Below, piece by piece: positions 1 to 12,219 of a stretch of 64,000 nucleotides of DNA (its first letter is position 1; each line of letters starts with the position of its first letter). A program made the translations under genes and the position numbers. Under the pieces are notes generated by a model. That model searched no databases and was not told the DNA's origin. It was given only the letters and a program-made list of their open reading frames with translations. Source of the stretch: Escherichia phage vb_EcoM_bov11CS3; the sequence record MT884009.2. One strand, given 5' to 3'.

Positions 1-542
1 GGCGGACGAAATGGGAATACTTCTCATTCTTATAATAATTCTCAAATATCGAGGCAGTGAGGCAAATTAATAGGCCAGGCCGTTCACACAGTGGCACAAC
101 ATTTGCAGCCTATCCTGTGTGGATGAATGAGAATACCTATCATTGTGAGAACTGTTATCATTACGGGCAATTTAACATAATACCCATTATGCGCACCACT
201 GGCGATACATACAGGGGTTGATAACATGAGTTACAGTTTACGCATATAACAATCATATTTCTTACTATTTGTGTGGGATATAGTTAGCAGCCAATAGATT
301 AGATATTGACCTGTGGACTTCCAACCGTCTAGACGTCTAAGCGCCCACACAACAAGGGTTATACATACATCGCTGAATGTAAACAGGGCCGCAAAAATGC
401 TACCATACAAGATTGTAAATTTTTCATGCGGCACTTGACAAAGAGGAGAAAAACTTGTCTGACACACTGGGCATACTCAACACACTGGATACAATAACAA
501 TTGTTACTATTGCATGCCTCACTGTTCACGCATAGATGATAA

Positions 543-1481: not shown

Positions 1482-1901
1482 TTATAATGATTCGTATATT
1501 TCAAAAATCCGATTTGCCAGGTCGTTACGGTAGCGGAATTTTTCCTCACGTTTGATCATAAGATCTTTATAGCCGTACTCTTTAAGCACTTCATTAACTT
1601 TATGGCGGCATACTTTCATATTATCCTGCGCGTCACCAATAAATCTGTTGCTATGGTGCATGGCTTTAATTTCTTCTTCCAGGACCAGGGCAACTATGCG
1701 GACCGGATCAAGCTGATAGGCGGTAACATCCATGCGGCATTGTAAACGGCTTTTTACGTCTGCCACCGGATATACTGCAACCTCTTCCCCGTCAACATTG
1801 ACAATAATTAGTTTACCATCGATTTCGAATCCTTTCGCCGCCGGACCGTGACAAAAAGCGTTATCAAAGCTATATGCCGGATTATTAGATTTAATGTTCA
1901 T
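1482..1901 (-). CDS. hypothetical early protein (139 aa)
   Basis: ATG start, SD aagagg upstream, sigma70-like promoter at 1951-1978, terminator downstream. Confidence 0.6.
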   Translation of the reverse strand: MNIKSNNPAYSFDNAFCHGPAAKGFEIDGKLIIVNVDGEEVAVYPVADVKSRLQCRMDVTAYQLDPVRIVALVLEEEIKAMHHSNRFIGDAQDNMKVCRHKVNEVLKEYGYKDLMIKREEKFRYRNDLANRIFEIYESL

Positions 1902-1950
1902 GGTGTTTTTACCTCTTAGTTAATTTTCTTACAACTTCCCTTCAAAAAAG

Positions 1951-1978
1951 AATATAGCAAAACTGCCGATCCTTGTCA
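1951..1978 (-). promoter_or_regulatory. sigma70-like promoter (TTGACA-17-TATATT)
   Basis: Reverse complement of 1951-1978 reads attgacaaggatcggcagttttgctatatt. Confidence 0.6.
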
Positions 1979-2046
1979 ATAAGGATAGCATAATTTTTAT
2001 GTGATCAAGGGGCTTTATTGCCCCCCTGATCGTGCAACTTGTTGTA

Positions 2047-2310
2047 TTATTTGTTACTCATCCAGTTTTCCCAAGCTGCCTGATAATCTGCTTCACTGCG
2101 GCGGATCTCTTCTTGCTCTTCAAGTCGGATCTCTTCTTCCAGGTACCCCAGGATATCGGCTTTTTTGGTCTGGCGTAACATCCAATCATCTTTTTTACGG
2201 GTAAAGATCTTATATGCTTTCTCGCAAACCTCTTTTTTGCTACCTTTTTGGACTTCAAGAACTTTGTAGGCCATGTACTGAACTAGTTTGAGCTGATCAA
2301 GACGTTTCAT
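2047..2310 (-). CDS. hypothetical protein (87 aa)
   Basis: ATG start with SD; same strand as neighbours. Confidence 0.55.
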   Translation of the reverse strand: MKRLDQLKLVQYMAYKVLEVQKGSKKEVCEKAYKIFTRKKDDWMLRQTKKADILGYLEEEIRLEEQEEIRRSEADYQAAWENWMSNK

Positions 2311-2370
2311 GATGTTTACCTCTTTATGCGGTTCTGATTAGTGGGCCTTTTGGCCCGTGTCATTATCTTA

Positions 2371-2643
2371 TTACTTATGGCGGCAGAATTCAAGCGTTTT
2401 TAATTGATAATCTTCCTCAGCCTGGAGTACGACCGCCTCGATCATTTCGTTGGCATTGTTAAAGCCATAACCTTTAGCGAAATCATCCGCGCCACCTTCG
2501 TGATCATGTTCTGCGTTCATCGCTTCCACAAAATGGAATTCAAGATTATTGAGGTAAGGGCTTGATGTTCCGTCCTCTTTTTCGATGAGATCCCAAATAG
2601 CATTAAAACGTGATTCGACTTCTTGATTAATCCAGCTTGACAT
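2371..2643 (-). CDS. hypothetical acidic protein (90 aa)
   Basis: ATG start; GC hairpin in 5-prime leader. Confidence 0.55.
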   Translation of the reverse strand: MSSWINQEVESRFNAIWDLIEKEDGTSSPYLNNLEFHFVEAMNAEHDHEGGADDFAKGYGFNNANEMIEAVVLQAEEDYQLKTLEFCRHK

Positions 2644-2853
2644 GATGTTTTCCTCTCTTCTGGTTGTTGTGTGGGCACTTTTGCCCCTTCAAGATAATGT
2701 TACCCCACCCCATGGCAGATGTCAACGGTTTTTATAGTTCTTATATGACAGGCAGGCCCGGTGATTGTCTCCACCCGTCGCCAGGTGCCTGCCGTGTAAT
2801 AAGTATAACAAAAAACAGGACCATAGCAAGCCCTGTTTTGTAGTTTATAAATA

Positions 2854-3045
2854 TTATATTTTTTCGCCTATGTAGTCCGGTCGGTTTTTCTCTGTCATGC
2901 GCTTTAGCAATTCTTGCATGTTACTTATGGCTTGTAGCGTATCCTCTTCCAGACTTGAATCAACATAATCAGGATCGTCTATAACCTTTCTATGATTATG
3001 ATAACGCAGTACCGCCAATACCTTTCTAACTTGTTCGATATTCAT
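2854..3045 (-). CDS. hypothetical protein (63 aa)
   Basis: ATG start; track ORF. Confidence 0.5.
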   Translation of the reverse strand: MNIEQVRKVLAVLRYHNHRKVIDDPDYVDSSLEEDTLQAISNMQELLKRMTEKNRPDYIGEKI

Positions 3046-3057
3046 TTTTATCGCTCT

Positions 3058-3192
3058 TTAAAACAAGGTGCCAACCGTTTCCAATAGATCACTGACTACA
3101 AGGACAATACTGATCAGCACATATCTAACCATAAGGGGGAAGAGCGCCAGCGATCCCGCCACAATCCCCAAGGTGATAATTATCTTTCTCAT
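3058..3192 (-). CDS. small hydrophobic peptide (44 aa), not in ORF track
   Basis: ATG 2 nt after the stop of upstream gene; predicted transmembrane peptide MRKIIITLGIVAGSLALFPL... Confidence 0.3.
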   Translation of the reverse strand: MRKIIITLGIVAGSLALFPLMVRYVLISIVLVVSDLLETVGTLF

Positions 3193-3194
3193 GG

Positions 3195-3479
3195 TTAACG
3201 GTTCACGTAAGTTTTCCCGTTTACGGTGATGGGCAGATCCTCCAGGTCTGGATCTTCCTTAAGGTCGCGAGCAAGTTCACCGCACCGGACACCCTCGAAT
3301 CCGTAGTACTCTGTTGTACCGTCATTAAAAGTTTTAGCGGCAAGGCATAAGCGATAAGTAACCCCGATTTGATTGACGGCATGAATATCCGTTAGATTAA
3401 CCTCTTTTGCCAGCTCTTTAGCCATTACAGGCGCATTAAGTCCAACAACCAGGGCAACCACTGCGATCATCTTTTTCAT
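3195..3479 (-). CDS. small secreted protein with N-terminal signal peptide (94 aa)
   Basis: N-terminus MKKMIAVVALVVGLNAPVMA resembles a Sec signal peptide. Confidence 0.55.
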   Translation of the reverse strand: MKKMIAVVALVVGLNAPVMAKELAKEVNLTDIHAVNQIGVTYRLCLAAKTFNDGTTEYYGFEGVRCGELARDLKEDPDLEDLPITVNGKTYVNR

Positions 3480-3567
3480 TGTGTCTATCCTCTTTCTGCT
3501 ACGTTTAAGGCGGCAACCGCCTGTTTATGCTTTGTTGGTTAATTTTCGGGTATCGGTATAAATTAAA

Positions 3568-3783
3568 CTATGCTGTACGCTCAACTATAACAACGGCTTG
3601 AGGGATCTCACCTTCCACCACTATCAAGGCTTTTTTCTGCGTAATGGATATCTTTACCCGCTTCAGCGTGGCGGTAAAGTCTTTCATTTCGTCGCGTGGT
3701 GTTTTAGTGCAATGCCAGATCTCAGGCTTACCTATTTGCAAGCCGCGTAAAAATTCTGTTTTGCCTGTTTTGTTAGTGATCAT
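3568..3783 (-). CDS. hypothetical protein (71 aa)
   Basis: ATG start; track ORF. Confidence 0.5.
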   Translation of the reverse strand: MITNKTGKTEFLRGLQIGKPEIWHCTKTPRDEMKDFTATLKRVKISITQKKALIVVEGEIPQAVVIVERTA

Positions 3784-3792
3784 TTGCCAACC

Positions 3793-3897
3793 TCACCTGA
3801 TACCGTTGGAAGACAAGATCACATTAGCCATGGTTGCAATCAGGCCAATACCCAGGGCAATAACCAGGATCACCGCATCAATTAATTTCTGTTTCAT
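3793..3897 (-). CDS. small hydrophobic peptide (34 aa), not in ORF track
   Basis: ATG preceded by SD aagagg; sequence MKQKLIDAVILVIALGIGLIATMANVILSSNGIR. Confidence 0.3.
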   Translation of the reverse strand: MKQKLIDAVILVIALGIGLIATMANVILSSNGIR

Positions 3898-3987
3898 TTT
3901 GTTTTCCTCTTCTTGTTCCAGGTGGCGGACCATTCCACCGCCTTATGTATTATGCTTTGTAAGATGGTTGTTTGTTTTCAAACTATT

Positions 3988-4167
3988 TTAACGATAATCA
4001 TCGTACGCTTTATTAACCTGGCGAATATAACATTCAAAAGCCAGATCAATAGATTTATATTCACGGATATACTCACCATAGGAAACCGCATACATTTCTA
4101 TAGCTTCCTCATATGCGAGGAGAATAGAATCCAAGCCTACGATCTCAGTCTTTGCAATAATAGCCAT
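3988..4167 (-). CDS. small protein (59 aa), not in ORF track
   Basis: ATG with SD aagagg; promoter-like TTGACA-16-TAGTAT at 4215-4242. Confidence 0.35.
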   Translation of the reverse strand: MAIIAKTEIVGLDSILLAYEEAIEMYAVSYGEYIREYKSIDLAFECYIRQVNKAYDDYR

Positions 4168-4214
4168 GATTTTTATCCTCTTTGTGGTTGGTGGGGCTTG
4201 CCCCTTTGATTTAT

Positions 4215-4242
4215 ATACTACAGTCTTATATGGTCATGTCAA
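4215..4242 (-). promoter_or_regulatory. sigma70-like promoter (TTGACA-16-TAGTAT)
   Basis: Hexamers read from reverse complement. Confidence 0.45.
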
Positions 4243-4472
4243 CTATTTTCAAAAAATTTTTCTGCTGTAATATTTTTCCCGGTAGGGTTCGCTACTTTCA
4301 AAATTCTATCATGCACCGGACGCCCAAAAGAATAAGCGCCGTACACAGTAAACCAATAATCGCCGTCAGGCTGTACTATTACCGCCGCATATGGTACGCC
4401 TTTTTCGTTTTTGCTGACAAAATAGATCACATTGCCATTAATAGCCTCAGCGCGTTTAATTTGTTCCATCAT
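4239..4472 (-). CDS. hypothetical protein (77 aa)
   Basis: ATG start; track ORF. Confidence 0.5.
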   Translation of the reverse strand: MMEQIKRAEAINGNVIYFVSKNEKGVPYAAVIVQPDGDYWFTVYGAYSFGRPVHDRILKVANPTGKNITAEKFFENS

Positions 4473-4526
4473 GATGATTTACCTCTCTTTATTTTCATAA
4501 TTGGGGCCTTTTCGGCCCCGCCAGGT

Positions 4527-4811
4527 TTATTTATTGATAGCGTGCAGCGGGAAAGGTACGCCAGGTTGATAGATAACTTTTACAACCTCATCAGGGCAAA
4601 AGAAATTGCAGAATTCCCCCTGATAAGCCTCATCCTCTTTCAATTCTTCATCAACATACTCAAAAAAGTAGTCGATGCTTGGATAATCCTGGCCGGGATT
4701 ATAGTCTACCATCGTTAATAACAATTCTTGATCATTCCGTAGGATATGCATACCCGCTTTTAAGTATTTTGCTTCCATTTCCACTACATCGCCAACGGTG
4801 ACAATAGCCAT
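4527..4811 (-). CDS. hypothetical acidic protein (94 aa)
   Basis: ATG start; track ORF. Confidence 0.55.
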   Translation of the reverse strand: MAIVTVGDVVEMEAKYLKAGMHILRNDQELLLTMVDYNPGQDYPSIDYFFEYVDEELKEDEAYQGEFCNFFCPDEVVKVIYQPGVPFPLHAINK

Positions 4812-5037
4812 GATTTTAACTCCTATCTATCCGGTTAATGATTGGGGGGCCGCCCCCACTGACACGTCCTATTATCCATATTGTAGGACTTGATGCAAGT
4901 ACTTCTTTAAAAATTTTTTAAGCGCCTTGGGGCCGCTGTAACGCTAAAATAATAAAGGCCATGCAACCGCATAGCCTTTATGTGATTATATCGCTGCAGG
5001 CCCTGCTAGGGGCCTTATTTTGCATCATTTGCCGGAA

Positions 5038-5337
5038 TTATTCAGAGAAAACATCGTTCACAATGGCTATAACAATGCCGTTCACCTTGTCACGGTCAAC
5101 AATGCACAAATCACCATAGATCATGTGGTAGTCTGGATGATCTTTGACGGAATAGTCGATAAGTGTTTTCTTGTCATCCAGCTTACTAACTTCCATTCTC
5201 ATAACGATATGAGAATCATCAAAGGCATTATTCCGAAAAGTCATAACCTGACCACCAGGGCACCCGGTGATTTCCACCTCCACGCCGTCTACGATCTGAC
5301 CATCAAAGAAATAAAGATTATTAGCCTGGATAAACAT
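5038..5337 (-). CDS. hypothetical protein (about 99 aa; track start 5358 is GTG)
   Basis: Internal ATG with SD aaggag preferred over GTG. Confidence 0.45.
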   Translation of the reverse strand: MFIQANNLYFFDGQIVDGVEVEITGCPGGQVMTFRNNAFDDSHIVMRMEVSKLDDKKTLIDYSVKDHPDYHMIYGDLCIVDRDKVNGIVIAIVNDVFSE

Positions 5338-5381
5338 GATCATTACTCCTTTTTGCACTGATTATTTTAACAGGGTTTAAA

Positions 5382-5425
5382 TTTACTTTATTGATGGCCC
5401 TGGAGTCAAGGCCATCTAAAAATAA
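5382..5425 (-). repeat. 44-bp repeat copy A: promoter-like element with palindrome GATGGCC-N10-GGCCATC
   Basis: Near-identical to copies at 9127-9170 and 9748-9791; minus strand reads TTGACT-N18-TAAATT. Confidence 0.7.
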
Positions 5426-5428
5426 ATT

Positions 5429-5629
5429 TTACAGGCCTACAATCTCTTTAATTCGTTTTACTGCTGCCTCAGCGCCTTGAGGGTAAAAATTATGGTAACC
5501 AATCACGCGAGTGATACTAATCGCCGTTTGATGATCTTCATAATACCCCTTGAATATTTCTTGACCATCAACCAGCACAGCAATTTTTTCTTCTTTTTTG
5601 AAGTTAATAACGCGGATATTGTTGCTCAT
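5429..5629 (-). CDS. hypothetical protein (66 aa)
   Basis: ATG start with SD; hairpin ggggag-tgt-ctcccc in leader. Confidence 0.5.
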   Translation of the reverse strand: MSNNIRVINFKKEEKIAVLVDGQEIFKGYYEDHQTAISITRVIGYHNFYPQGAEAAVKRIKEIVGL

Positions 5630-5730
5630 TTTGTTTCCCCTTCTGGAACTTTGTCTGTGTGGTGGGGAGTGTCTCCCCGTTGATTGTTATTATCCATATT
5701 CAGGACCGGATTGCAACACCCCGGAAGAAA

Positions 5731-5770
5731 AATTTTTTGAAAAAAGTTAGGCCCCCAGGGATCGGGGGCC
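5731..5770 (-). terminator. Rho-independent terminator (minus-strand sense)
   Basis: Hairpin ggcccccagggatcgggggcc followed on the minus strand by a U-rich tract. Confidence 0.55.
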
Positions 5771-5914
5771 GTTATCAGTTACTTACAGAGATAAAATACA
5801 TCCCTACGCCTAACAATATTTCAAGGGCGATGATCTCAAGCCATACCATAACACGGCGCACCTTATCAGCGCATGGCTTATCCTTGGTTGTCATCGTCTC
5901 CCCCTTCCCTCCTG

Positions 5915-6136
5915 TTAGTAGTGACGTGGTTTACAATGGCCCCCAGGAGTCCTATCACCACGCACACCACAAGAAAAATTATCTCCGCTGTTGTTCGATC
6001 CATTGTTATAAAATTCCTCAAGATCAGGCCTGAAAATAAAGCGTTCGTTATTGAATCCGTCACGCCAGGCGGCTGGCTTCAAATCTTCACTAAAGGGATT
6101 AATTAACGTGGCGTTATTTAAACGGCTGGTCCACAT
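5915..6136 (-). CDS. hypothetical protein (about 73 aa; alternative overlapping frame 5878-6063 exists)
   Basis: ATG with SD gagagga; the track start is TTG. Confidence 0.3.
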   Translation of the reverse strand: MWTSRLNNATLINPFSEDLKPAAWRDGFNNERFIFRPDLEEFYNNGSNNSGDNFSCGVRGDRTPGGHCKPRHY

Positions 6137-6486
6137 ATTTTCTATTCCTCTCAAATAGGCGATCCGCCTCAGTTAAACATATCTCATGGGCTTGGTCTCT
6201 GGTTTTAGCCTCATCAAAAACCTGTTGTGCCAGGCTGCAGCGTAGGGAGACTGGAAGATCACTATAATAGGCGTTGACAAACGTTTGTGCGTCATACAGG
6301 TCGGAAAACACTTTACCCTTTCTATTATCGCCCTTGTCAACAATTGCAAGGATAACCAATACAATAGTTGCAACCACTCCCAGGAAAATAGATATAACAA
6401 ACCATAGAAAAGCGGATCTACCTATCTTGCCAGCGATCCAGGCGTTGAACAAGGCAACTACTACAGCCAAAATAATAAATTCCATT
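6114..6486 (-). CDS. small membrane protein (about 123 aa, two predicted TM segments)
   Basis: Internal ATG with SD agagg chosen; the track start 6620 overlaps the upstream gene by 70 nt. Confidence 0.5.
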
Positions 6487-6549
6487 CTATGTACCTCTTT
6501 TGCAGTTCTGTTTAACAATAAGGCGGCAAATATGCCGCCTGTTACCTGA

Positions 6550-6930
6550 TTAAAAATTATCGCCGTAAATCTTTCCGCTTTCTGCCCACACCACCACGCG
6601 GGGCATGTTATCCCATACATCTTGTTTCAGATTTAACGCGTGCAATTCTTCGGTGGTGCTCATACCAGGCACGGGCTGATTGTATACTGCAAAACGACCA
6701 CCTGCATAATCATAGGCCAGAGTTAAATCACACTGAATCATCTTTTTGATCATGGCGTTAAGCATAGCGTTAGCCGCATACTGGTCACGTTTTAAAGGCA
6801 ACTCTTTGATTAGTTTGCGATAGTTTTCGATATGGTCGCACACTGTTTCACGTGGAAGATCTTTCATATCTTCACGGAATGTAACCAGGTTAAACATAAC
6901 GGTGTCAATAGCTTTAGTAGTGTTTTTCAT
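6550..6930 (-). CDS. hypothetical protein (126 aa)
   Basis: ATG start; promoter 6985-7012 and 8-bp hairpin in leader. Confidence 0.55.
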   Translation of the reverse strand: MKNTTKAIDTVMFNLVTFREDMKDLPRETVCDHIENYRKLIKELPLKRDQYAANAMLNAMIKKMIQCDLTLAYDYAGGRFAVYNQPVPGMSTTEELHALNLKQDVWDNMPRVVVWAESGKIYGDNF

Positions 6931-6984
6931 GATGTTTTCCTCTTTGTTTTGTGTGGGGGCAAACGTCTTGCCCCCTTGAGTTTT

Positions 6985-7012
6985 AATATAGCAGGTTTTT
7001 AGGTTATTGCAA
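6985..7012 (-). promoter_or_regulatory. sigma70-like promoter (TTGCAA-16-TATATT)
   Basis: Hexamers read from reverse complement; followed by hairpin gggggcaa-acgtc-ttgccccc. Confidence 0.5.
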
Positions 7013-7020
7013 CACTTTAT

Positions 7021-7644
7021 TTATGAAAAAGTCATCTCACCATATTCATCGACATCAAACCGCCAATCATTGGCCTCGATAAGGCCGATCAGGTTTTCTG
7101 CGGTGAACTGTTCTAGATAGGCCTCCTCCAGGTCTACGTAAACCTTGCGGGATAGCTCCCGTACCGTCTCGGTGATCAGTTCTTCCAGGTCTTCCACTTT
7201 GTTTTCTTGTTTGGCGGTCAGATCTAGCCAAGTGGTATCAATGTACCCGCTTACAGTGTTTTCATGGCTGTAATGGCTGTACTTGTCGCGTTCAACACTG
7301 GCTGATAACTCGCCATCGTGCATTGTGCCGAACAAGTGACGAATTGATCGGAACTTGGTCAGGGCCTTTACTTTACGCAAAAATTTTTCTAAATCCACGT
7401 TTTCAGCACTGATTGACGCGCCGTCACCCTGGCACCAAAAGCCGGACCAATGTACTTCGGTATCTTCAAGGCCGTACTCTGGAAAGATATATTCTTTGTA
7501 GTGTTCAATTACACTTTCTGCAAAAAAGTCATCCCCGCTGTGTTCTTCTCTTTCGCGTACCATTTCAATGGCTTTTTCTTTTTGTTCGTCGGTCAGCACG
7601 TCGAAAGATAAATTGTAACCTGTGGTAATGTTAACGGTGGTCAT
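7021..7644 (-). CDS. acidic protein of unknown function (207 aa)
   Basis: Strongly acidic composition; ATG start; promoter 7702-7729. Confidence 0.6.
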   Translation of the reverse strand: MTTVNITTGYNLSFDVLTDEQKEKAIEMVREREEHSGDDFFAESVIEHYKEYIFPEYGLEDTEVHWSGFWCQGDGASISAENVDLEKFLRKVKALTKFRSIRHLFGTMHDGELSASVERDKYSHYSHENTVSGYIDTTWLDLTAKQENKVEDLEELITETVRELSRKVYVDLEEAYLEQFTAENLIGLIEANDWRFDVDEYGEMTFS

Positions 7645-7701
7645 GATATTTTCTCCTGTTTTCTTTGTTAGTGGCGGTAAGTTTTCCCGCCTGTGTGTTT
7701 A

Positions 7702-7729
7702 ATTATACTTATTGAGATTTACTTGTCAA
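7702..7729 (-). promoter_or_regulatory. sigma70-like promoter (TTGACA-16-TATAAT)
   Basis: Consensus hexamers read from reverse complement. Confidence 0.6.
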
Positions 7730-7979
7730 CACTATTTTTTAAATTATTGTGGCGCAAAATGTTTAAAATCTCCTCAACGTCATCAACACGGCGGCAATTT
7801 TTAAACGCTACCAATTGCCCCATGATTTTAATCACTGGGCGGCCTTGCCAGTGCCCCTGGAGAAAGCGCGCCTTGACTTTATCGGTGGAACTATCACGCC
7901 ACCAAATGGCCTTGTTGTTGCAGTAGTAAAAATTATTCAGGACAACATCAACTTTATCAAAATTTTTTAATTTACGCAT
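7719..7979 (-). CDS. hypothetical protein (86 aa)
   Basis: ATG start; promoter 8011-8038. Confidence 0.5.
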   Translation of the reverse strand: MRKLKNFDKVDVVLNNFYYCNNKAIWWRDSSTDKVKARFLQGHWQGRPVIKIMGQLVAFKNCRRVDDVEEILNILRHNNLKNSVDK

Positions 7980-8010
7980 GGCGTTTACTCCTTTCTCTCT
8001 TTGATGTGGT

Positions 8011-8038
8011 TAGTATAGCTAACCTGTTTAAGATGTCA
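8011..8038 (-). promoter_or_regulatory. sigma70-like promoter (TTGACA-16-TATACT)
   Basis: Hexamers read from reverse complement. Confidence 0.55.
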
Positions 8039-8183
8039 AGCTTTAAATAAAATCACTGTCAATGATATTTTTAACGCCATAAAACGGCCCTAAGCGATGT
8101 TTTCAGGTTAAAGGGGGGCGATTGCATAGGTGGGGCCTTTTTGGCGCTTACAGGGCCAACCAGGGGCGCTATTCGTAGGATAG

Positions 8184-8212
8184 AAATAAAAAGCCCCGCA
8201 CAATGGCGGGGC
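8184..8212 (-). terminator. Rho-independent terminator (minus-strand sense)
   Basis: Hairpin gccccgc-acaatg-gcggggc followed on the minus strand by a U-tract; 3-prime of gene 8221-8418. Confidence 0.65.
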
Positions 8213-8220
8213 GTTGGTTG

Positions 8221-8418
8221 TTATTTGTCTTTATGGCGGTATCGTTCTGCCTGTCGTTCACGTTCCAAAAGTAGGCCAGGCAATTTACGATCATAATGAT
8301 TTCGCCAGATCTTTCCAAATCTTTTTGGCTTATTCAGTTTATTGTTACGCTGGCGTCGTTCCGGCAGCTCTTCGGAATCATGAGATCGCTTTACAATCTT
8401 CTCAAAATTAATCTTCAT
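8221..8418 (-). CDS. small highly basic protein (about 65 aa; track start 8442 is TTG)
   Basis: ATG with SD aagggggg; Arg/Lys-rich. Confidence 0.45.
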   Translation of the reverse strand: MKINFEKIVKRSHDSEELPERRQRNNKLNKPKRFGKIWRNHYDRKLPGLLLERERQAERYRHKDK

Positions 8419-8779
8419 ATATTCCCCCCTTGCTAACTTCAATATTGGCCTGAATAGCCCGGATACGCCGTTTTATAACCTCCTGATCCTTGCAATCATA
8501 TCCCCAAAAGTCTACGATTTTTGCGCCTCCAGCCTTTAGGCGGTATAGTGTTTCTTGCATCTTGTAGGCCGGGATCGGTCGCGGTGTTACCTGGTCGCCC
8601 TTCTCATTCTTGTACTTAATAATGTAGTCTTCATTGTCGTTGAATATCCAAAATGGGTATTCTGTGAGCGCGTTGCTCTCTTTTTCGTTTTTAGATTGGA
8701 TCTTGTTTACAATTAAAGCCGTAGCAATAGCGCCAATAATAAAACTTGCCCCACTGATCATGTTACTTTCTCCTTTCAT
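8408..8779 (-). CDS. membrane-anchored protein (123 aa)
   Basis: N-terminal hydrophobic segment; ATG start. Confidence 0.55.
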   Translation of the reverse strand: MKGESNMISGASFIIGAIATALIVNKIQSKNEKESNALTEYPFWIFNDNEDYIIKYKNEKGDQVTPRPIPAYKMQETLYRLKAGGAKIVDFWGYDCKDQEVIKRRIRAIQANIEVSKGGIYED

Positions 8780-8837
8780 TGTATTGATAAACTATCTTTA
8801 TAGATGGCCCTGCTACCAGGACCACCGAAAAAACAGT

Positions 8838-9083
8838 TTATTTGACGATACCGACAAAACAGATCCCGCCTTCCCCTATATAGGCAATATCGGTAATTTT
8901 ATAATTTGTCAAGATCCGCGTGTTCAGCTCATTAATAAAATCTGTCATCGCGTTGGTGTAGTTGTCTTCCGTGTCTAAGGCATAATCCCAGGTGTAAACC
9001 TTTTTACGTCCGAAGCCTTTTACCATGATACGGGCGCTTTTGGTGTTGGTAGGGGCATAATATTTGGTGATTAGTGCTGCCAT
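8838..9083 (-). CDS. hypothetical protein (81 aa)
   Basis: ATG start; preceded by 44-bp promoter repeat copy B. Confidence 0.5.
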   Translation of the reverse strand: MAALITKYYAPTNTKSARIMVKGFGRKKVYTWDYALDTEDNYTNAMTDFINELNTRILTNYKITDIAYIGEGGICFVGIVK

Positions 9084-9126
9084 GGTTTTAACTCCTATGC
9101 ATTAGTTCAGTGTTAACAGTATAAAG

Positions 9127-9170
9127 TTTACTTTATTGATGGCCCTGGAGTCAAGGCCATCTAAAAATAA
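9127..9170 (-). repeat. 44-bp repeat copy B: promoter-like element with palindrome
   Basis: Minus strand reads TTGACT-N17-TAAACT; palindrome GATGGCC/GGCCATC flanks the -35 hexamer. Confidence 0.7.
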
Positions 9171-9172
9171 TC

Positions 9173-9514
9173 TTACTCGTTTTCTTCCAGCTCCGCAAGC
9201 TCTTCTTTTGCTTCTTCTAGCTCTGTCTGTAATTCCTGGTATTCTTCATCGTCCTCAATATCCAGGCTGTCGATGTAGTCGCTAAATCCGCAGCGGTAAG
9301 CGATAGGATCTAGCTCCTTGAGGATACGCGACGGAAGAAAAGAAATGTTTCCGATCATGATTTCGCCGTAGATCTCGTCTAACCATTCATCATAGTTTTC
9401 GTCGTACTTGTCCTCGTCGATTTCAAAGGTATCGATCTTGTTCTCAAGGTCTGCGATCTGTTTTTTCAGTGCGGCAACCTGAATAGCTTTTTCTGCGGCG
9501 GTCATAGTAGTCAT
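9173..9514 (-). CDS. acidic coiled-coil protein (113 aa)
   Basis: ATG start; promoter 9566-9593. Confidence 0.55.
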   Translation of the reverse strand: MTTMTAAEKAIQVAALKKQIADLENKIDTFEIDEDKYDENYDEWLDEIYGEIMIGNISFLPSRILKELDPIAYRCGFSDYIDSLDIEDDEEYQELQTELEEAKEELAELEENE

Positions 9515-9565
9515 GGTGTTTTCTCCTTTTGTGTGTTCTGGGAAGTTTTCCCGTTTACGGGTTTA

Positions 9566-9593
9566 AGTATACCGATCTAAGTTAGCTTGTCAA
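9566..9593 (-). promoter_or_regulatory. sigma70-like promoter (TTGACA-16-TATACT)
   Basis: Hexamers read from reverse complement. Confidence 0.55.
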
Positions 9594-9713
9594 TTAAAAA
9601 TTTAAGAAAAATTTTGCAAAACTGTTAGCGCTACTCATTAACATTTGCGCCAGGATGTAACCGACAACGCAGACGATAATAGTTACCTTTGTGTATTGGC
9701 GTGTAGTGCCCAT
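9594..9713 (-). CDS. small hydrophobic peptide (39 aa), not in ORF track
   Basis: ATG with SD aggggg; predicted TM segment. Confidence 0.3.
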   Translation of the reverse strand: MGTTRQYTKVTIIVCVVGYILAQMLMSSANSFAKFFLNF

Positions 9714-9747
9714 CTTAAAGCCCCCTTTTTCGCTTAACTGAGATTAG

Positions 9748-9791
9748 TTTACTTTATTGATGGCCCTGGAGTCAAGGCCATCTAAAAATAA
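9748..9791 (-). repeat. 44-bp repeat copy C: promoter-like element with palindrome
   Basis: Identical to copy B. Confidence 0.7.
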
Positions 9792-9793
9792 AC

Positions 9794-10198
9794 TCAATAA
9801 GTTTTTAGTACTTTCCCGTCCAACCTGTCTAGCTGGATCTCAATGGCTGCAGAAAACCTATTATAAACCACGTCGCCCATGGAATCCAACCAGTCTATGA
9901 CGTTATACACTTGCTCTTTGTTCTTGCAGGTCCGGATCCGTTTCATGATGTAAGCCGGATCAATATTGGTACTCTCGTTGGTGTTCCCCTGTACCTGGTT
10001 TGCCGTATTAGCTACATCTTTAATGGCCTTTACCACCACCTGGAAGGGCTTTAAGGTGCCTTTTGCGTTCATCTCACGCGCTTTTGCGGCGCGGTTGTTA
10101 TAGGTTACACAACGGCGGCAAATGTTCACTAAGTGCATGTCAATAATTTTTTCATCGTTTGCCAGTTCGTTCATGATGCGGCGTACGTTCTTATTCAT
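9794..10198 (-). CDS. hypothetical protein (134 aa)
   Basis: ATG start; promoter 10247-10274. Confidence 0.55.
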   Translation of the reverse strand: MNKNVRRIMNELANDEKIIDMHLVNICRRCVTYNNRAAKAREMNAKGTLKPFQVVVKAIKDVANTANQVQGNTNESTNIDPAYIMKRIRTCKNKEQVYNVIDWLDSMGDVVYNRFSAAIEIQLDRLDGKVLKTY

Positions 10199-10246
10199 GA
10201 TCTTTTTCCTTTGTGCTGGCGGGAAACATTCCCGCCTTTTGTGTCT

Positions 10247-10274
10247 AGTTTACTTAAATTTTGCAGCGTGTCAA
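10247..10274 (-). promoter_or_regulatory. sigma70-like promoter (TTGACA-16-TAAACT)
   Basis: Hexamers read from reverse complement. Confidence 0.5.
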
Positions 10275-10280
10275 TGATTT

Positions 10281-10679
10281 TTATTCGTGGGCGCATGTCA
10301 CAATGTGCTTTTTATAGCCCAGGTGGTCAGCAAGTGCCGACAAAAACTCTTCTTCGTAGATCCAGCCGTCGGCAGTGATCCCCATAGCATTTAATGCACT
10401 CTCAAGTGCTGCGTTAGCTTTATCGTAACCGTGACCGCTCGCCTTGCCGCCAGTATAACCGTACTTATTGTTCTTGTTGTCGTGAATCCAAAACACGCAG
10501 TAGTGAGTGTTACCACTGGCGGCGGCATAATACCGGATCTCAGCTACTTCGTGCAAATTATTGTCATCGTCCAGGCCCACCAGATTATAAGCCTTGTAAA
10601 ATCCACGATCACGGCGGCAGTTCTTGACATCAGAAAAAGAAAAGTCCGCATTATCAAAATTAAAGGTAGTGGTTTTCAT
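10281..10679 (-). CDS. hypothetical protein (132 aa)
   Basis: ATG start; track ORF. Confidence 0.55.
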   Translation of the reverse strand: MKTTTFNFDNADFSFSDVKNCRRDRGFYKAYNLVGLDDDNNLHEVAEIRYYAAASGNTHYCVFWIHDNKNNKYGYTGGKASGHGYDKANAALESALNAMGITADGWIYEEEFLSALADHLGYKKHIVTCAHE

Positions 10680-10742
10680 GATTTTATCCTCTTAGTGTCT
10701 TTTGCGATTTCAGTGTATTTTGTGTCAGACCATATGTCAACA

Positions 10743-10939
10743 TTATTTTTTATTAAACCAGTGGTTGATCTGACCTTTTGTCAGGGCGCAACGGTTAAGC
10801 TGTTGCAGGGTATAGCTATGACCGCGACGAAATTTATAAAGGCCTTGCCCGTTGTTGATGGTTACATCCACCCGGCAAATCACTTGATTGGTGACCACCT
10901 GGCGAGTGTTGCGACGTACTTTAATTCCGTAGGCGTTCA
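10743..10939 (-). CDS. hypothetical small protein (about 65 aa; track extends to 11027)
   Basis: Internal ATG with SD agagg preferred. Confidence 0.4.
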
Positions 10940-11026
10940 TGATTTTTTTATCCTCTCTGTTAATTGGTGTGGTGTTGTTCACCTTGCGAGGATAAGAATA
11001 ACAAGAACTGTCCGAGCTGTCAACCA

Positions 11027-11202
11027 TTAGTTAAAATTATTTTTTGGGTAGAATTCTCCAGCCGCCGCCCCTGCCAGGTTAACCATCATTTTTTCGTACT
11101 CTTCTTTATGTTCCAACGCTCCCGCCATAGCCTTTTCAACCAGGGCGATAGCCTCAGCGTCATTAATAGCTACATTTTCCAGGGGGATCATATTACCTTC
11201 CA
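11027..11202 (-). CDS. small protein (58 aa), not in ORF track
   Basis: ATG with strong SD gaggagg. Confidence 0.35.
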
Positions 11203-11467
11203 TTTTTGTACCTCCTCTTCAATTGTTACCTATCCTATAGCATAGGCCCACCAGGTTTGCAAGCCTTCATTCTCTCCTACCTGGTCAGTTAGGCCCTGCC
11301 AGGCTGGCCCCGCCAGGTTGCAGCGGTCAGCGCATCAGGTTAGAAATTTTTTTTTGAAAAGTGTTGACAGCGGCCCCGCCAGGTGGCAAAATATACCTAT
11401 CGAAAGGACGGCAGGCACCGGTGACGGGGGAGACAACCACCGGGGATGGGCGCTGCATGAAATGAGA

Positions 11468-11484
11468 ACGATTATCATTATCGT
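11468..11484. promoter_or_regulatory. Fur-box-like palindromic operator (imperfect)
   Basis: acgattatcattatcgt resembles the GATAATGATAATCATTATC consensus. Confidence 0.35.
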
Positions 11485-11601
11485 CTAAAAATTTATGCAA
11501 AAACTTCTTGCTTTCTTTGTCCTGTGTGTTACTATAATAACAAGCCGGGGCAGTAGGGGCCGGGAGACAATCACCGGGCCTGCCCGTTATTCTGCAAACG
11601 A

Positions 11602-11616
11602 GAATGATTATCATTC
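11602..11616. promoter_or_regulatory. Fur-box-like perfect palindrome GAATGAT-T-ATCATTC
   Basis: Perfect 7-1-7 inverted repeat; 12 of 13 match to the Fur-box core AATGATAATCATT. Confidence 0.4.
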
Positions 11617-11732
11617 AAAATTCTAAATGAGAACTCCTCGCATTTAATAAATTTAATTAGCACGCTAATTACCCTCCGTAACAATTTCCTATAAAATAGT
11701 ATCCACTAAAATATTCCCATATAGAAATTTTA

Positions 11733-11910
11733 AAAATCCATTTCTGAAAACGAAAAATCGATTTCGTCCCCAAAAATTTCAGGTCGAGAGCCGGAACGAT
11801 TTCCAGAAAATCCGATTCAGAAAACGAAAAACAGATCGAGTACTGAGAAATTTATCGAGAAAAATTTTCAGAAAATTCAATCTTTGAAACGAAAAACAGA
11901 TCGAGTACTT
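11733..11910. repeat. Three degenerate 38-bp direct repeats (iteron-like)
   Basis: Copies at about 11733, 11808 and 11873 share gaaaacgaaaaacagatcgagtact. Confidence 0.6.
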
Positions 11911-12219
11911 GGAAAGCTGCGCCACAACTTCAAGGTAGTGGTCGGATTATTACTATAAAAGGTCAAGGGTAAGTGGGGGAAGTTCTAGTAGAAGGGTGTG
12001 AGCATGTGCGGGAAATCTGTAATGGTGGTCTGGAATATGGTGCAGACGATAGGATGAGTGGTTCATCTCGTCGTGCCTGCTCTGAAAAATCCATTTTAGT
12101 TTTCGATCCATTTTCTGATTTTCTAAGGATTTTAAAATATCCTGGTAGGTAAAATATCAAAAGGAGGAAATCCATTTTAGAAATCCTCCTGATCTCTGGC
12201 AACCTGATAACTTAAAATA

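Follow-up and report, generated by a model that had tools for sequence, protein, structure and literature searches.

What binds the two short palindromes that lie in a gene-free gap of a virulent enterobacterial phage genome, and why has the phage kept them? The DNA in question is a 64,000-nt stretch of Escherichia phage vb_EcoM_bov11CS3 (sequence record MT884009.2; hereafter the window), in which the palindromes fall within a gap of ~1 kb (11204–12219; hereafter hub B) and resemble the binding site of Fur. Most bacteria have Fur as their master iron regulator; in the gut and during infection, growth is limited by iron. A previous model-made reading of the letters alone (the sequence-only reading) had proposed that the palindromes were either host Fur sites or operators for a dimeric repressor of the phage. 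We lean, with slightly better than even confidence, towards genuine high-affinity host Fur boxes that selection maintains, in rV5-like phages and related ones, within the non-coding early hub. Whole-genome scans were performed on MT884010.2 (Escherichia phage vb_EcoM_bov22_2, Vequintavirus, rV5-like, 135,884 bp), bases 1–64000 of which are identical to the window.

Both palindromes resemble footprinted Fur sites

The palindrome GAATGATTATCATTC at 11602–11616 was confirmed as a perfect 7-1-7 palindrome. The 12 of 13 positions previously noted as matching the Fur core are those of the plus strand. Read on the minus strand, AATGATAATCATT agrees with the core at 13/13, the central base being A/T. 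A second, imperfect copy had been placed at 11468–11484. This copy is real, its coordinates were offset, and it is in fact the better of the two matches to the classical Fur 19-mer GATAATGATAATCATTATC, agreeing at 17/19 positions (GATAATGATAATCGTTCTC, 11464–11482, minus strand) compared with 15/19 for site 2 (11600–11618, minus strand). Each box was also correctly located on the 3′ side of one of two GC-rich structured copies.

For quantitative comparison, a symmetric 19-bp Fur position weight matrix (PWM) was built from 12 DNase-footprinted E. coli K-12 regions (coordinates from PMC2189734, sequence from NC_000913.3). Leave-one-out scores of these footprinted sites ranged from 8.7 to 23.9 bits. 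In the scan of the 135.9-kb genome with this matrix, an analysis the sequence-only reading had suggested, the two boxes ranked first and second (23.7 and 23.1 bits). Second registers were found 6 bp further on, scoring 14.1 bits for box 1 (11467–11485) and 11.1 bits for box 2 (11603–11621), and the registers at −6 scored −9.7 bits (11455) and 3.1 bits (11591). The overlapping +6 registers are consistent with the expectation for a classical two-dimer Fur box. Compared with fecI, a footprinted site (TATGAGAATGGTTATCATT), the first box of the relatives described below (AATGAGAATGATTATCATT) has 2/19 differing positions and box 2 has 3/19. By sequence, the two boxes match the Fur consensus and matrix at the level of footprinted sites.

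Chance is excluded as the source of the two boxes. The Fur 19-mer at ≤3 mismatches was expected 0.03 times per window, and none of 100 shuffles (0/100) gave two matches. The highest scores in the controls were 12.0–19.7 bits across 20 whole-genome shuffles and 19.4 bits across 2000 Markov simulations of the hub. Taken by itself at ≤2 mismatches, the 13-mer core showed no significant enrichment (8 matches vs 3.0 expected).

The boxes belong to a wider dyad family. A 20-nt direct repeat links boxes 1 and 2 to a third copy (11625–11644), which is degenerate and whose dyad occupies the place of the second good box in relatives; the equivalent in phage Kashira is AATGAGAACCATTCTCATC (15.8 bits). 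The family pattern, AATGAKAAT-N-ATTMTCATT (i.e. AATGAGAA-N3-TT(A/C)TCATT), had six matches in the window versus 0.5 expected and, at ≤2 mismatches across the whole genome, was confined to hub B and to positions 10–28, 126–144 and 144–162. Genome-wide, 6/7 sites scoring ≥15 bits were found inside two non-coding hubs that together account for ~2% of the DNA. A matrix made from boxes picked by palindromy alone correlated strongly with the E. coli Fur matrix (r = 0.89), the top base agreeing at 8/9 half-site positions. The two matrices part only at position 6, which carries the least information in E. coli and where the phage boxes have G over T and E. coli sites T over A. Likewise, the most enriched 7-mers in the arrays of the relatives (100- to 400-fold) tile AAATGAGAATGAT / ATCATTCTCATTT; both this enrichment and the palindromy-based matrix were obtained without the Fur matrix. 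An exact-sequence literature search on the family motif returned three bacterial papers, all on Fur: AATGAgAATcATTctCATT, the 9-1-9 consensus, was published as the Fur box for Xanthomonas campestris (PMC1790865), TGAGAATGATTCTCA as a Fur box in E. faecalis (PMC6056675) and AAATGAGAATCATTTTCATTT among the Fur entries listed for A. baumannii (PMC3055841). In E. coli, P. aeruginosa and B. subtilis, a single Fur dimer occupies the 9-1-9 unit of 19 bp (PMC2189734).

The boxes are conserved in rV5-like phages and distant relatives

Among eight rV5-like genomes (89–96% identity in this region), variable columns numbered 0/19 in box 2 and 1/19 in box 1, compared to 8/30 in the spacer between box 1 and the promoter-like site P2 and 20/76 downstream. 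Window positions 11560–11651, which correspond to the 3′ half of the leader plus boxes, were the only part of the hub with blastn matches in distant phages. These included phages of Klebsiella, Raoultella, Salmonella, Serratia, Pantoea, Cronobacter and Pectobacterium, as well as phi92-like E. coli phages.

We extended the comparison to 12 large relatives (L002–L004 and L129–L137), nine of them metagenomic and recovered via a neighbouring 88-aa gene. Their hubs share a layout consisting of a promoter P1 with a structured RNA, P2, a GC-rich leader (loop GAGACAAACACC), the boxes, and AT-rich or GATCGAG iterons. After P2 and the leader, 11 of the 12 carried one to five boxes (15–26 bits), spaced 23–29 bp apart. 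The 16-mer GAGAATGATTATCATT is identical within the first box of Kashira, phiTE and ESCO13, and in this phage it lies within box 2. Later boxes vary by lineage in both number and sequence yet still fit the matrix; this favours selection on binding over plain inheritance.

The comparison also brought up ~16–18 GenBank records (MG0656xx) named 'Campylobacter phage' (host C. jejuni), which are 93–99% identical to the hubs of E. coli rV5-like phages; their C. jejuni host labels look doubtful.

Similar arrays in unrelated viral contigs

An exact scan of IMG/VR for GAGAATGATTATCATT returned at least 120 stretches, nearly all on unrelated contigs, and the 16-mer occurred at no fewer than 113 distinct, mostly unrelated viral contig loci. 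Among the matches listed, the AAT that completes the palindrome stood directly upstream of the 16-mer in 56/121 cases, and the density of further boxes of ≥15 bits was 2.0 per kb up to 200 bp from a match versus 0.085 per kb in the remainder of these loci. Arrays of 2–7 separate boxes were present at a minimum of 39 loci, with 36 of 39 arrays located outside open reading frames (ORFs) of ≥70 aa. In some unrelated contigs the neighbours of the motif were DnaA boxes (L092, L048) or parS-like sites (L032, L042). Spaced, non-coding arrays of predicted Fur boxes appear to recur in phage DNA. A tentative extension, which we consider possible and no better than that, is that host-Fur box arrays of 2–7 boxes are a widespread phage device, found in Vequintavirinae, phi92-like Stephanstirmvirinae and dozens of unrelated contigs, that would sense host iron status as infection begins or sequester Fur. 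If true, Fur sequestration would make the dying cell import iron for phage enzymes, e.g. ribonucleotide reductase.

Organisation of hub B

The coordinates of the boxes and associated features are presented in Table 1. To the left of hub B lies a block of ~26 small minus-strand genes (1482–11203) transcribed away from it, and the genes on its right, also on the minus strand, terminate at the hub. No tRNA or tmRNA genes were found within the window. Two small ORFs inside the hub, of 56 aa (11318–11488) and 43 aa (11495–11626), were rejected as genes; the reading frame differs between the two GC-rich copies, which indicates that the repeat operates at the nucleotide level.

Table 1 Positions of the Fur-type boxes and accompanying features in the window
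Feature	Position	Strand	Sequence and details
Fur-type box, terminal repeat	10–28		AATGGGAATACTTCTCATT; 16.4 bits; 10 bp from physical left end
Two abutting Fur-type boxes, terminal repeat	126–162 (126–144, 144–162)		AATGAGAATACCTATCATT, TGTGAGAACTGTTATCATT; 16.6 and 15.1 bits
Promoter-like site P1	11364–11392	+	TTGACA, 17-nt spacer, CAAAAT; TG-extended; consensus scan, 10/12 matches
GC-rich structured copy 1	11406–11457	+	Loop GGGAGACAACCACC; direct repeat D8; folds
Putative Fur box 1 (9-1-9 register)	11461–11479		AATGAGAACGATTATCATT; PWM 23.7 bits, top of genome
Promoter-like site P2	11508–11538	+	TTGCTT 11508–11513; TGt-TACTAT 11530–11535; overlapping TATAAT 11533–11538; read off sequence
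GC-rich structured copy 2 (P2 leader)	11542–11593	+	Apical loop GAGACAATCACC; fold −27.4 kcal/mol, z = −2.1
Putative Fur box 2 (9-1-9 register)	11597–11615		AACGAGAATGATTATCATT; contains palindrome 11602–11616; PWM 23.1 bits, second in genome
Degenerate third dyad	11626–11644		AATGAGAACTCCTCGCATT; 29 bp after box 2; 8.5 bits; 2 mismatches to family pattern
Three iteron-like repeats (57–74 bp)	11720–11915		GATCGAG core; repeat family D1; downstream of boxes

Each of the two units in hub B follows the same order, with a sigma70-like promoter, then a GC-rich structured copy and then a box. P1, which is kept in rV5-like genomes, would start transcription near 11399 and so place box 1 at about +62 to +80. 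The predicted P2 start near 11542 would place box 2 at about +55 to +73. P2 falls under the threshold of a simple promoter scan; its TTGCTT/TTGAT ... TGTTATTCT arrangement is kept in ESCO13, Kashira, phiTE and L129–L137. Relative to P2, box 1 is centred near −72 and ends ~28 bp upstream of the −35 element.

Downstream of the boxes, the iteron-like repeats carry the core GAAAACGAAAAACAGATCGAGTACT, and a DnaA-box-like GTATCCACT is located at 11699–11707. Iteron cores of the form GATCGAGA(A/C)C occur in 3–5 copies at the equivalent relative place in Kashira, phiTE, L130 and L137, and Kashira has a perfect DnaA box (TTATCCACA, near L002 2923). This iteron stretch is a candidate replication origin. 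A near-perfect dyad, TAATTAGCACGCTAATTA, lies 10 bp past the third box (11654–11671) and is kept in rV5-like genomes with C/T at its centre.

Copy 1 of the GC-rich element is confined to the rV5-like genus. The leader itself has homologues in the relatives (L002 2485–2535, L003 2520–2570, L004 2540–2590) with an invariant apical loop, GAGACAA(A/T)CACC, and is duplicated in rV5-like phages. In single-sequence folds compared by hand, these homologues share the shape of an outer and an inner helix, while the helix sequences are lineage-specific: the outer helix is AUAGCGGG/CCCGCUAU in phiTE, GCGAGGGG/CCCCUGCGC in ESCO13 and GGGCAG/CUGCCC in this phage, and for the inner helix phiTE has CCC/GGG where Kashira has GGG/CCC. 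By eye, compensatory changes can be seen, and the leader looks like a real RNA structure or small RNA according to these folds. RNAalifold, applied to a MAFFT alignment of the leader plus first box, recovered the Fur palindrome alone, the GC-rich part being misaligned. No match at gathering score to Rfam 15 was found in the window or in the hubs of three relatives, the best hits being at chance level (E ≥ 0.17).

Further sequence elements were observed around the promoters. GGCCCYGCCAGGT is present in five copies within 11067–11388, at least two of them inside the 17-nt spacers of sigma70-like promoters, namely P1 and a leftward TTGCAA-17-TATAGG near 11234–11262; promoter spacers in the relatives are also GC-rich and frequently self-complementary. 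The relatives additionally have a structured RNA candidate downstream of P1 (GCCACCCCACGGCGWAAAGGCGGGGCTAAC ... GGAAGGTNRATCGCCGGKAG; L002 2335–2420, L004 2385–2470, L003 2370–2450, L129–L137). It is near-identical across Serratia, Pectobacterium and phi92-like phages; this phage lacks it, and it has no Rfam family.

A second cluster of boxes in the terminal repeat

The remaining Fur-type boxes lie in the second non-coding hub, at the physical end of the genome, within the terminal repeat, which was delimited from the rV5-like phage HdK5. Bases 1–459 of HdK5 are identical to 138870–139328, giving a repeat of 459 bp, the first base of which is window base 1. Each of the terminal-repeat box scores was reached in ~1% of simulations. 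In HdK5, the second of the abutting boxes (window 144–162) scores 17.6 bits, and the annotation of phage nomo has a repeat_region at the equivalent of window 128–161. The left 11.2 kb consists of the terminal repeat, ~1 kb of non-coding DNA and the ~26 small genes transcribed toward the end, with hub B as its boundary. The non-coding stretch past the terminal repeat also holds a 20-nt direct repeat (GCCATGCCATTCGTTTGCAT, 543–562 and 802–821) and long inverted repeats around 630–790.

Host Fur and its competitors as the putative binding protein

A tblastn search of the phage with E. coli Fur found no Fur homologue, the best E being 3.1. The Pfam scan for DNA-binding domains covered the six proteins that flank the hub, beside ~200 others in the phage, and found none in them; all six belong to PHROG families of unknown function. 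Zur, ArgR, RcsAB and IHF, other E. coli regulators with AT-rich dyads, are presumably poorer fits. Host Fur is the economical candidate because the phage lacks a Fur homologue and a recognisable repressor beside the hub, and because Fur is conserved across the hosts of these phages and binds near-identical sites. We regard host Fur as the most likely ligand from the sequence comparisons, which suggests that these phages recruit it. With respect to the two ligands offered by the sequence-only reading, the Fur proposal gained from the scores, the published consensus, the matrix correlation and the persistence of the boxes across subfamilies and hosts, and the repressor proposal received no positive support.

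The plus-strand gene flanking the hub of the relatives (88 aa) was rejected as a source of the binder; it is absent from this phage and its product has no Pfam domain. This 88–94-aa protein (phrog_19316), which has an invariant LGWQGGTVHQVA motif, opens the hub in the relatives (L002 2028–2294, L004 2065–2331, L003 2038–2319), and its annotated start in phiTE seems to be ~150 nt too far upstream. The pseudo-ToxI RNA of phiTE was also sought in the hub of this phage, and the ToxI repeat gave no match.

Could the dyads instead be operators of a phage-encoded dimeric DNA-binding protein with Fur-like specificity? Arrays in an early regulatory hub between promoters are what phage operators look like, the position-6 G preference and the box spacing both differ from E. 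coli chromosomal Fur sites and clusters, and most hub-adjacent proteins are without known function. However, besides the negative homologue and domain searches, this phage keeps its boxes even though the flanking 88-aa gene of the relatives is absent, and the boxes near-match a footprinted host site (fecI). The lineage restriction expected of a repressor operator was also not observed: many unrelated contigs carry the motif in arrays and with identical flanks, which a ubiquitous host factor fits better. We consider a phage-encoded binder unlikely. The far more sceptical view, that the resemblance is a functionless by-product of AT-rich non-coding DNA, could appeal to the lack of enrichment of the 13-mer core and to the terminal-repeat boxes, which are marginal when taken singly. 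It is untenable given the statistics and the conservation, and we give it next to no credence: the observed scores were unmatched in any shuffle or simulation, rV5-like genomes vary in the adjacent spacers but not in box 2, and the arrays persist across subfamilies.

Two other explanations place the function of the boxes elsewhere. Fur might bind them as an architectural protein, within a nucleoprotein complex at an origin or at a genome-end/packaging site. Other phages use host IHF or DnaA for such complexes. The boxes adjoin GATC-core iterons and a DnaA-box-like sequence, the second cluster is situated within the terminal repeat close to the physical end, and arrays spaced at 23–29 bp are unlike promoter operators. 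Together with the DnaA boxes and parS-like sites beside the motif in some unrelated contigs, and with the host DnaA boxes reported for the T5 terminal-repeat non-coding region (bioRxiv 10.1101/866236), this makes an architectural role a serious rival with a small but appreciable probability. Against it, the adjacency to a candidate origin and packaging site is no more than suggestive, Fur has no established architectural role, and the terminal-repeat boxes are weaker (15–17 bits). A much less probable explanation is a function in RNA: the P1 and P2 transcripts would fold the palindromes into A/U-rich hairpins that affect processing, stability or termination, or form a switch with a complementary UCAUUCU upstream. 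Transcription probably runs through both boxes, and for the window, ESCO13 and L130 the folds predict an alternative hairpin, (G)UYAUUCU ... AGAAUGA(U), that overlaps the left half-box. Yet what is kept among copies and phages is the half-site sequence itself, beyond complementarity; the centre (the 'loop') of the first box in the array is invariant, a G:A mismatch at positions 6/14 is kept and never compensated, and RNAalifold gave 6 pairs with 0 compensatory changes. The hairpin stems are also weak, and the terminal-repeat boxes lack a comparable promoter context.

Proposed role of the putative host Fur boxes

Returning to host Fur boxes as the favoured explanation, we infer with fair confidence that Fur binds them; the roadblock and titration models that follow are speculative. 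One Fur dimer would occupy each 19-bp 9-1-9 site and a second dimer the weaker site 6 bp away. Iron-loaded Fur could then block or gate early transcripts, apparently non-coding, that run rightward into the iterons, thereby coupling an early phage decision to host iron status. The roadblock is our preferred guess because the boxes lie downstream of the promoters and not over them. As phage DNA is amplified, the boxes of the hub and the terminal repeat would soak up Fur, and the host iron-uptake regulon would be derepressed. Fur titration is a likely consequence of this amplification, whatever function was selected. The phage encodes the iron-dependent ribonucleotide reductases NrdAB and NrdDG.

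Several observations weigh against this explanation. Roadblock repression is not the usual mode of Fur. The promoter scan found no promoter-like site overlapping either box, both lying at ~+55 to +80, and a minus-strand promoter over the boxes was absent from the scan, with weak hexamers visible by eye. In E. coli, 83% of Fur clusters overlap a promoter (PMC2189734), so that overlap is typical of Fur boxes, though not defining. The spacing of the boxes (23–29 bp in the relatives, 136 and 29 bp in this phage) contrasts with the 6-bp overlaps of chromosomal clusters, and there is no iron-related gene near them. The preference for G over T at position 6 is stronger than in E. coli and could mean a different protein. 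In L134 (2940–3400), P2 and the first ~25 nt of the leader are followed by an inserted ORF and there are no Fur boxes, and the distant, smaller carriers of the 88-aa gene (L138–L149) have no array; the array is thus dispensable in some lineages. In addition, the P1 and P2 starts, the non-coding nature of the transcripts and the binding of Fur are all predictions from sequence.

If the favoured explanation is true, phage development would be wired to host iron status, or phages would rewire host iron uptake, with a bearing on phage therapy under iron limitation in vivo. Fur would also join the short list of host proteins whose co-option through cis sites is known or proposed (IHF, DnaA, LexA and others).

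Comparison with known systems

Fur boxes and other host-factor sites are known in phages. Examples include Fur control of stx1, the PhoB boxes of cyanophages and the LexA boxes of temperate phages. Lambdoid prophages have Fur boxes upstream of a sitABCD operon (PMC6969025). These cases share with the present one the common principle that phage functions follow host physiology. They differ in that a promoter-overlapping site controls an accessory ('moron') or lysogeny gene, whereas here the sites are in a core hub and terminal repeat with no obvious coding target. A literature search on phage Fur boxes, their exact sequences and rV5-like hubs and promoters found no description of Fur boxes in the hub of a virulent phage, and no rV5-like transcriptome. 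What appears to be new is the occurrence of arrayed, top-scoring predicted boxes in the core hub and terminal repeat of virulent phages across two subfamilies, with neither promoter overlap nor an iron gene.

The closest likeness is to the chromosomal and plasmid Fur boxes of Enterobacteria, such as the fecI, entC, sodA and fhuF operators, which share with the phage boxes the 19-bp inverted repeat AATGA(T/G)AAT-N-ATT(A/C)TCATT. The phage boxes equal the best footprinted E. coli Fur sites in score and, like them, have a second register 6 bp away. Unlike chromosomal Fur boxes, they reside in a virulent phage, have no iron gene near and lie +55 to +80 past promoters; and, unlike the overlapping chromosomal clusters, they are separate, 23–29 bp apart (136 bp here), with G favoured at position 6.

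The Fur titration assay (FURTA) provides a second parallel, as multicopy plasmids carrying Fur boxes titrate Fur and derepress the iron-uptake regulon (used and cited in PMC2189734 and PMC3145626). With two strong and three to four weaker boxes per phage genome, a replicating pool would present hundreds of sites, on a par with a FURTA plasmid. The effect in FURTA is a laboratory assay artefact, and titration during infection is our proposal.

Phage T5 offers a third. The untranslated region of its terminal repeat contains DnaA boxes and palindromes and has been proposed as an injection-stop region (bioRxiv 10.1101/866236). The T5 sites are for DnaA rather than Fur, their role in T5 is itself a hypothesis, and two-step injection is without evidence in rV5-like phages. 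In both phages, clusters of sites for a host DNA-binding protein, predicted ones in the rV5-like genome, are found in large non-coding regions that bound a terminal block (~10 kb) of small early genes beside a terminal repeat, and the left-terminal 11.2 kb of the rV5-like genome resembles the pre-early (first-step-transfer) region of T5.

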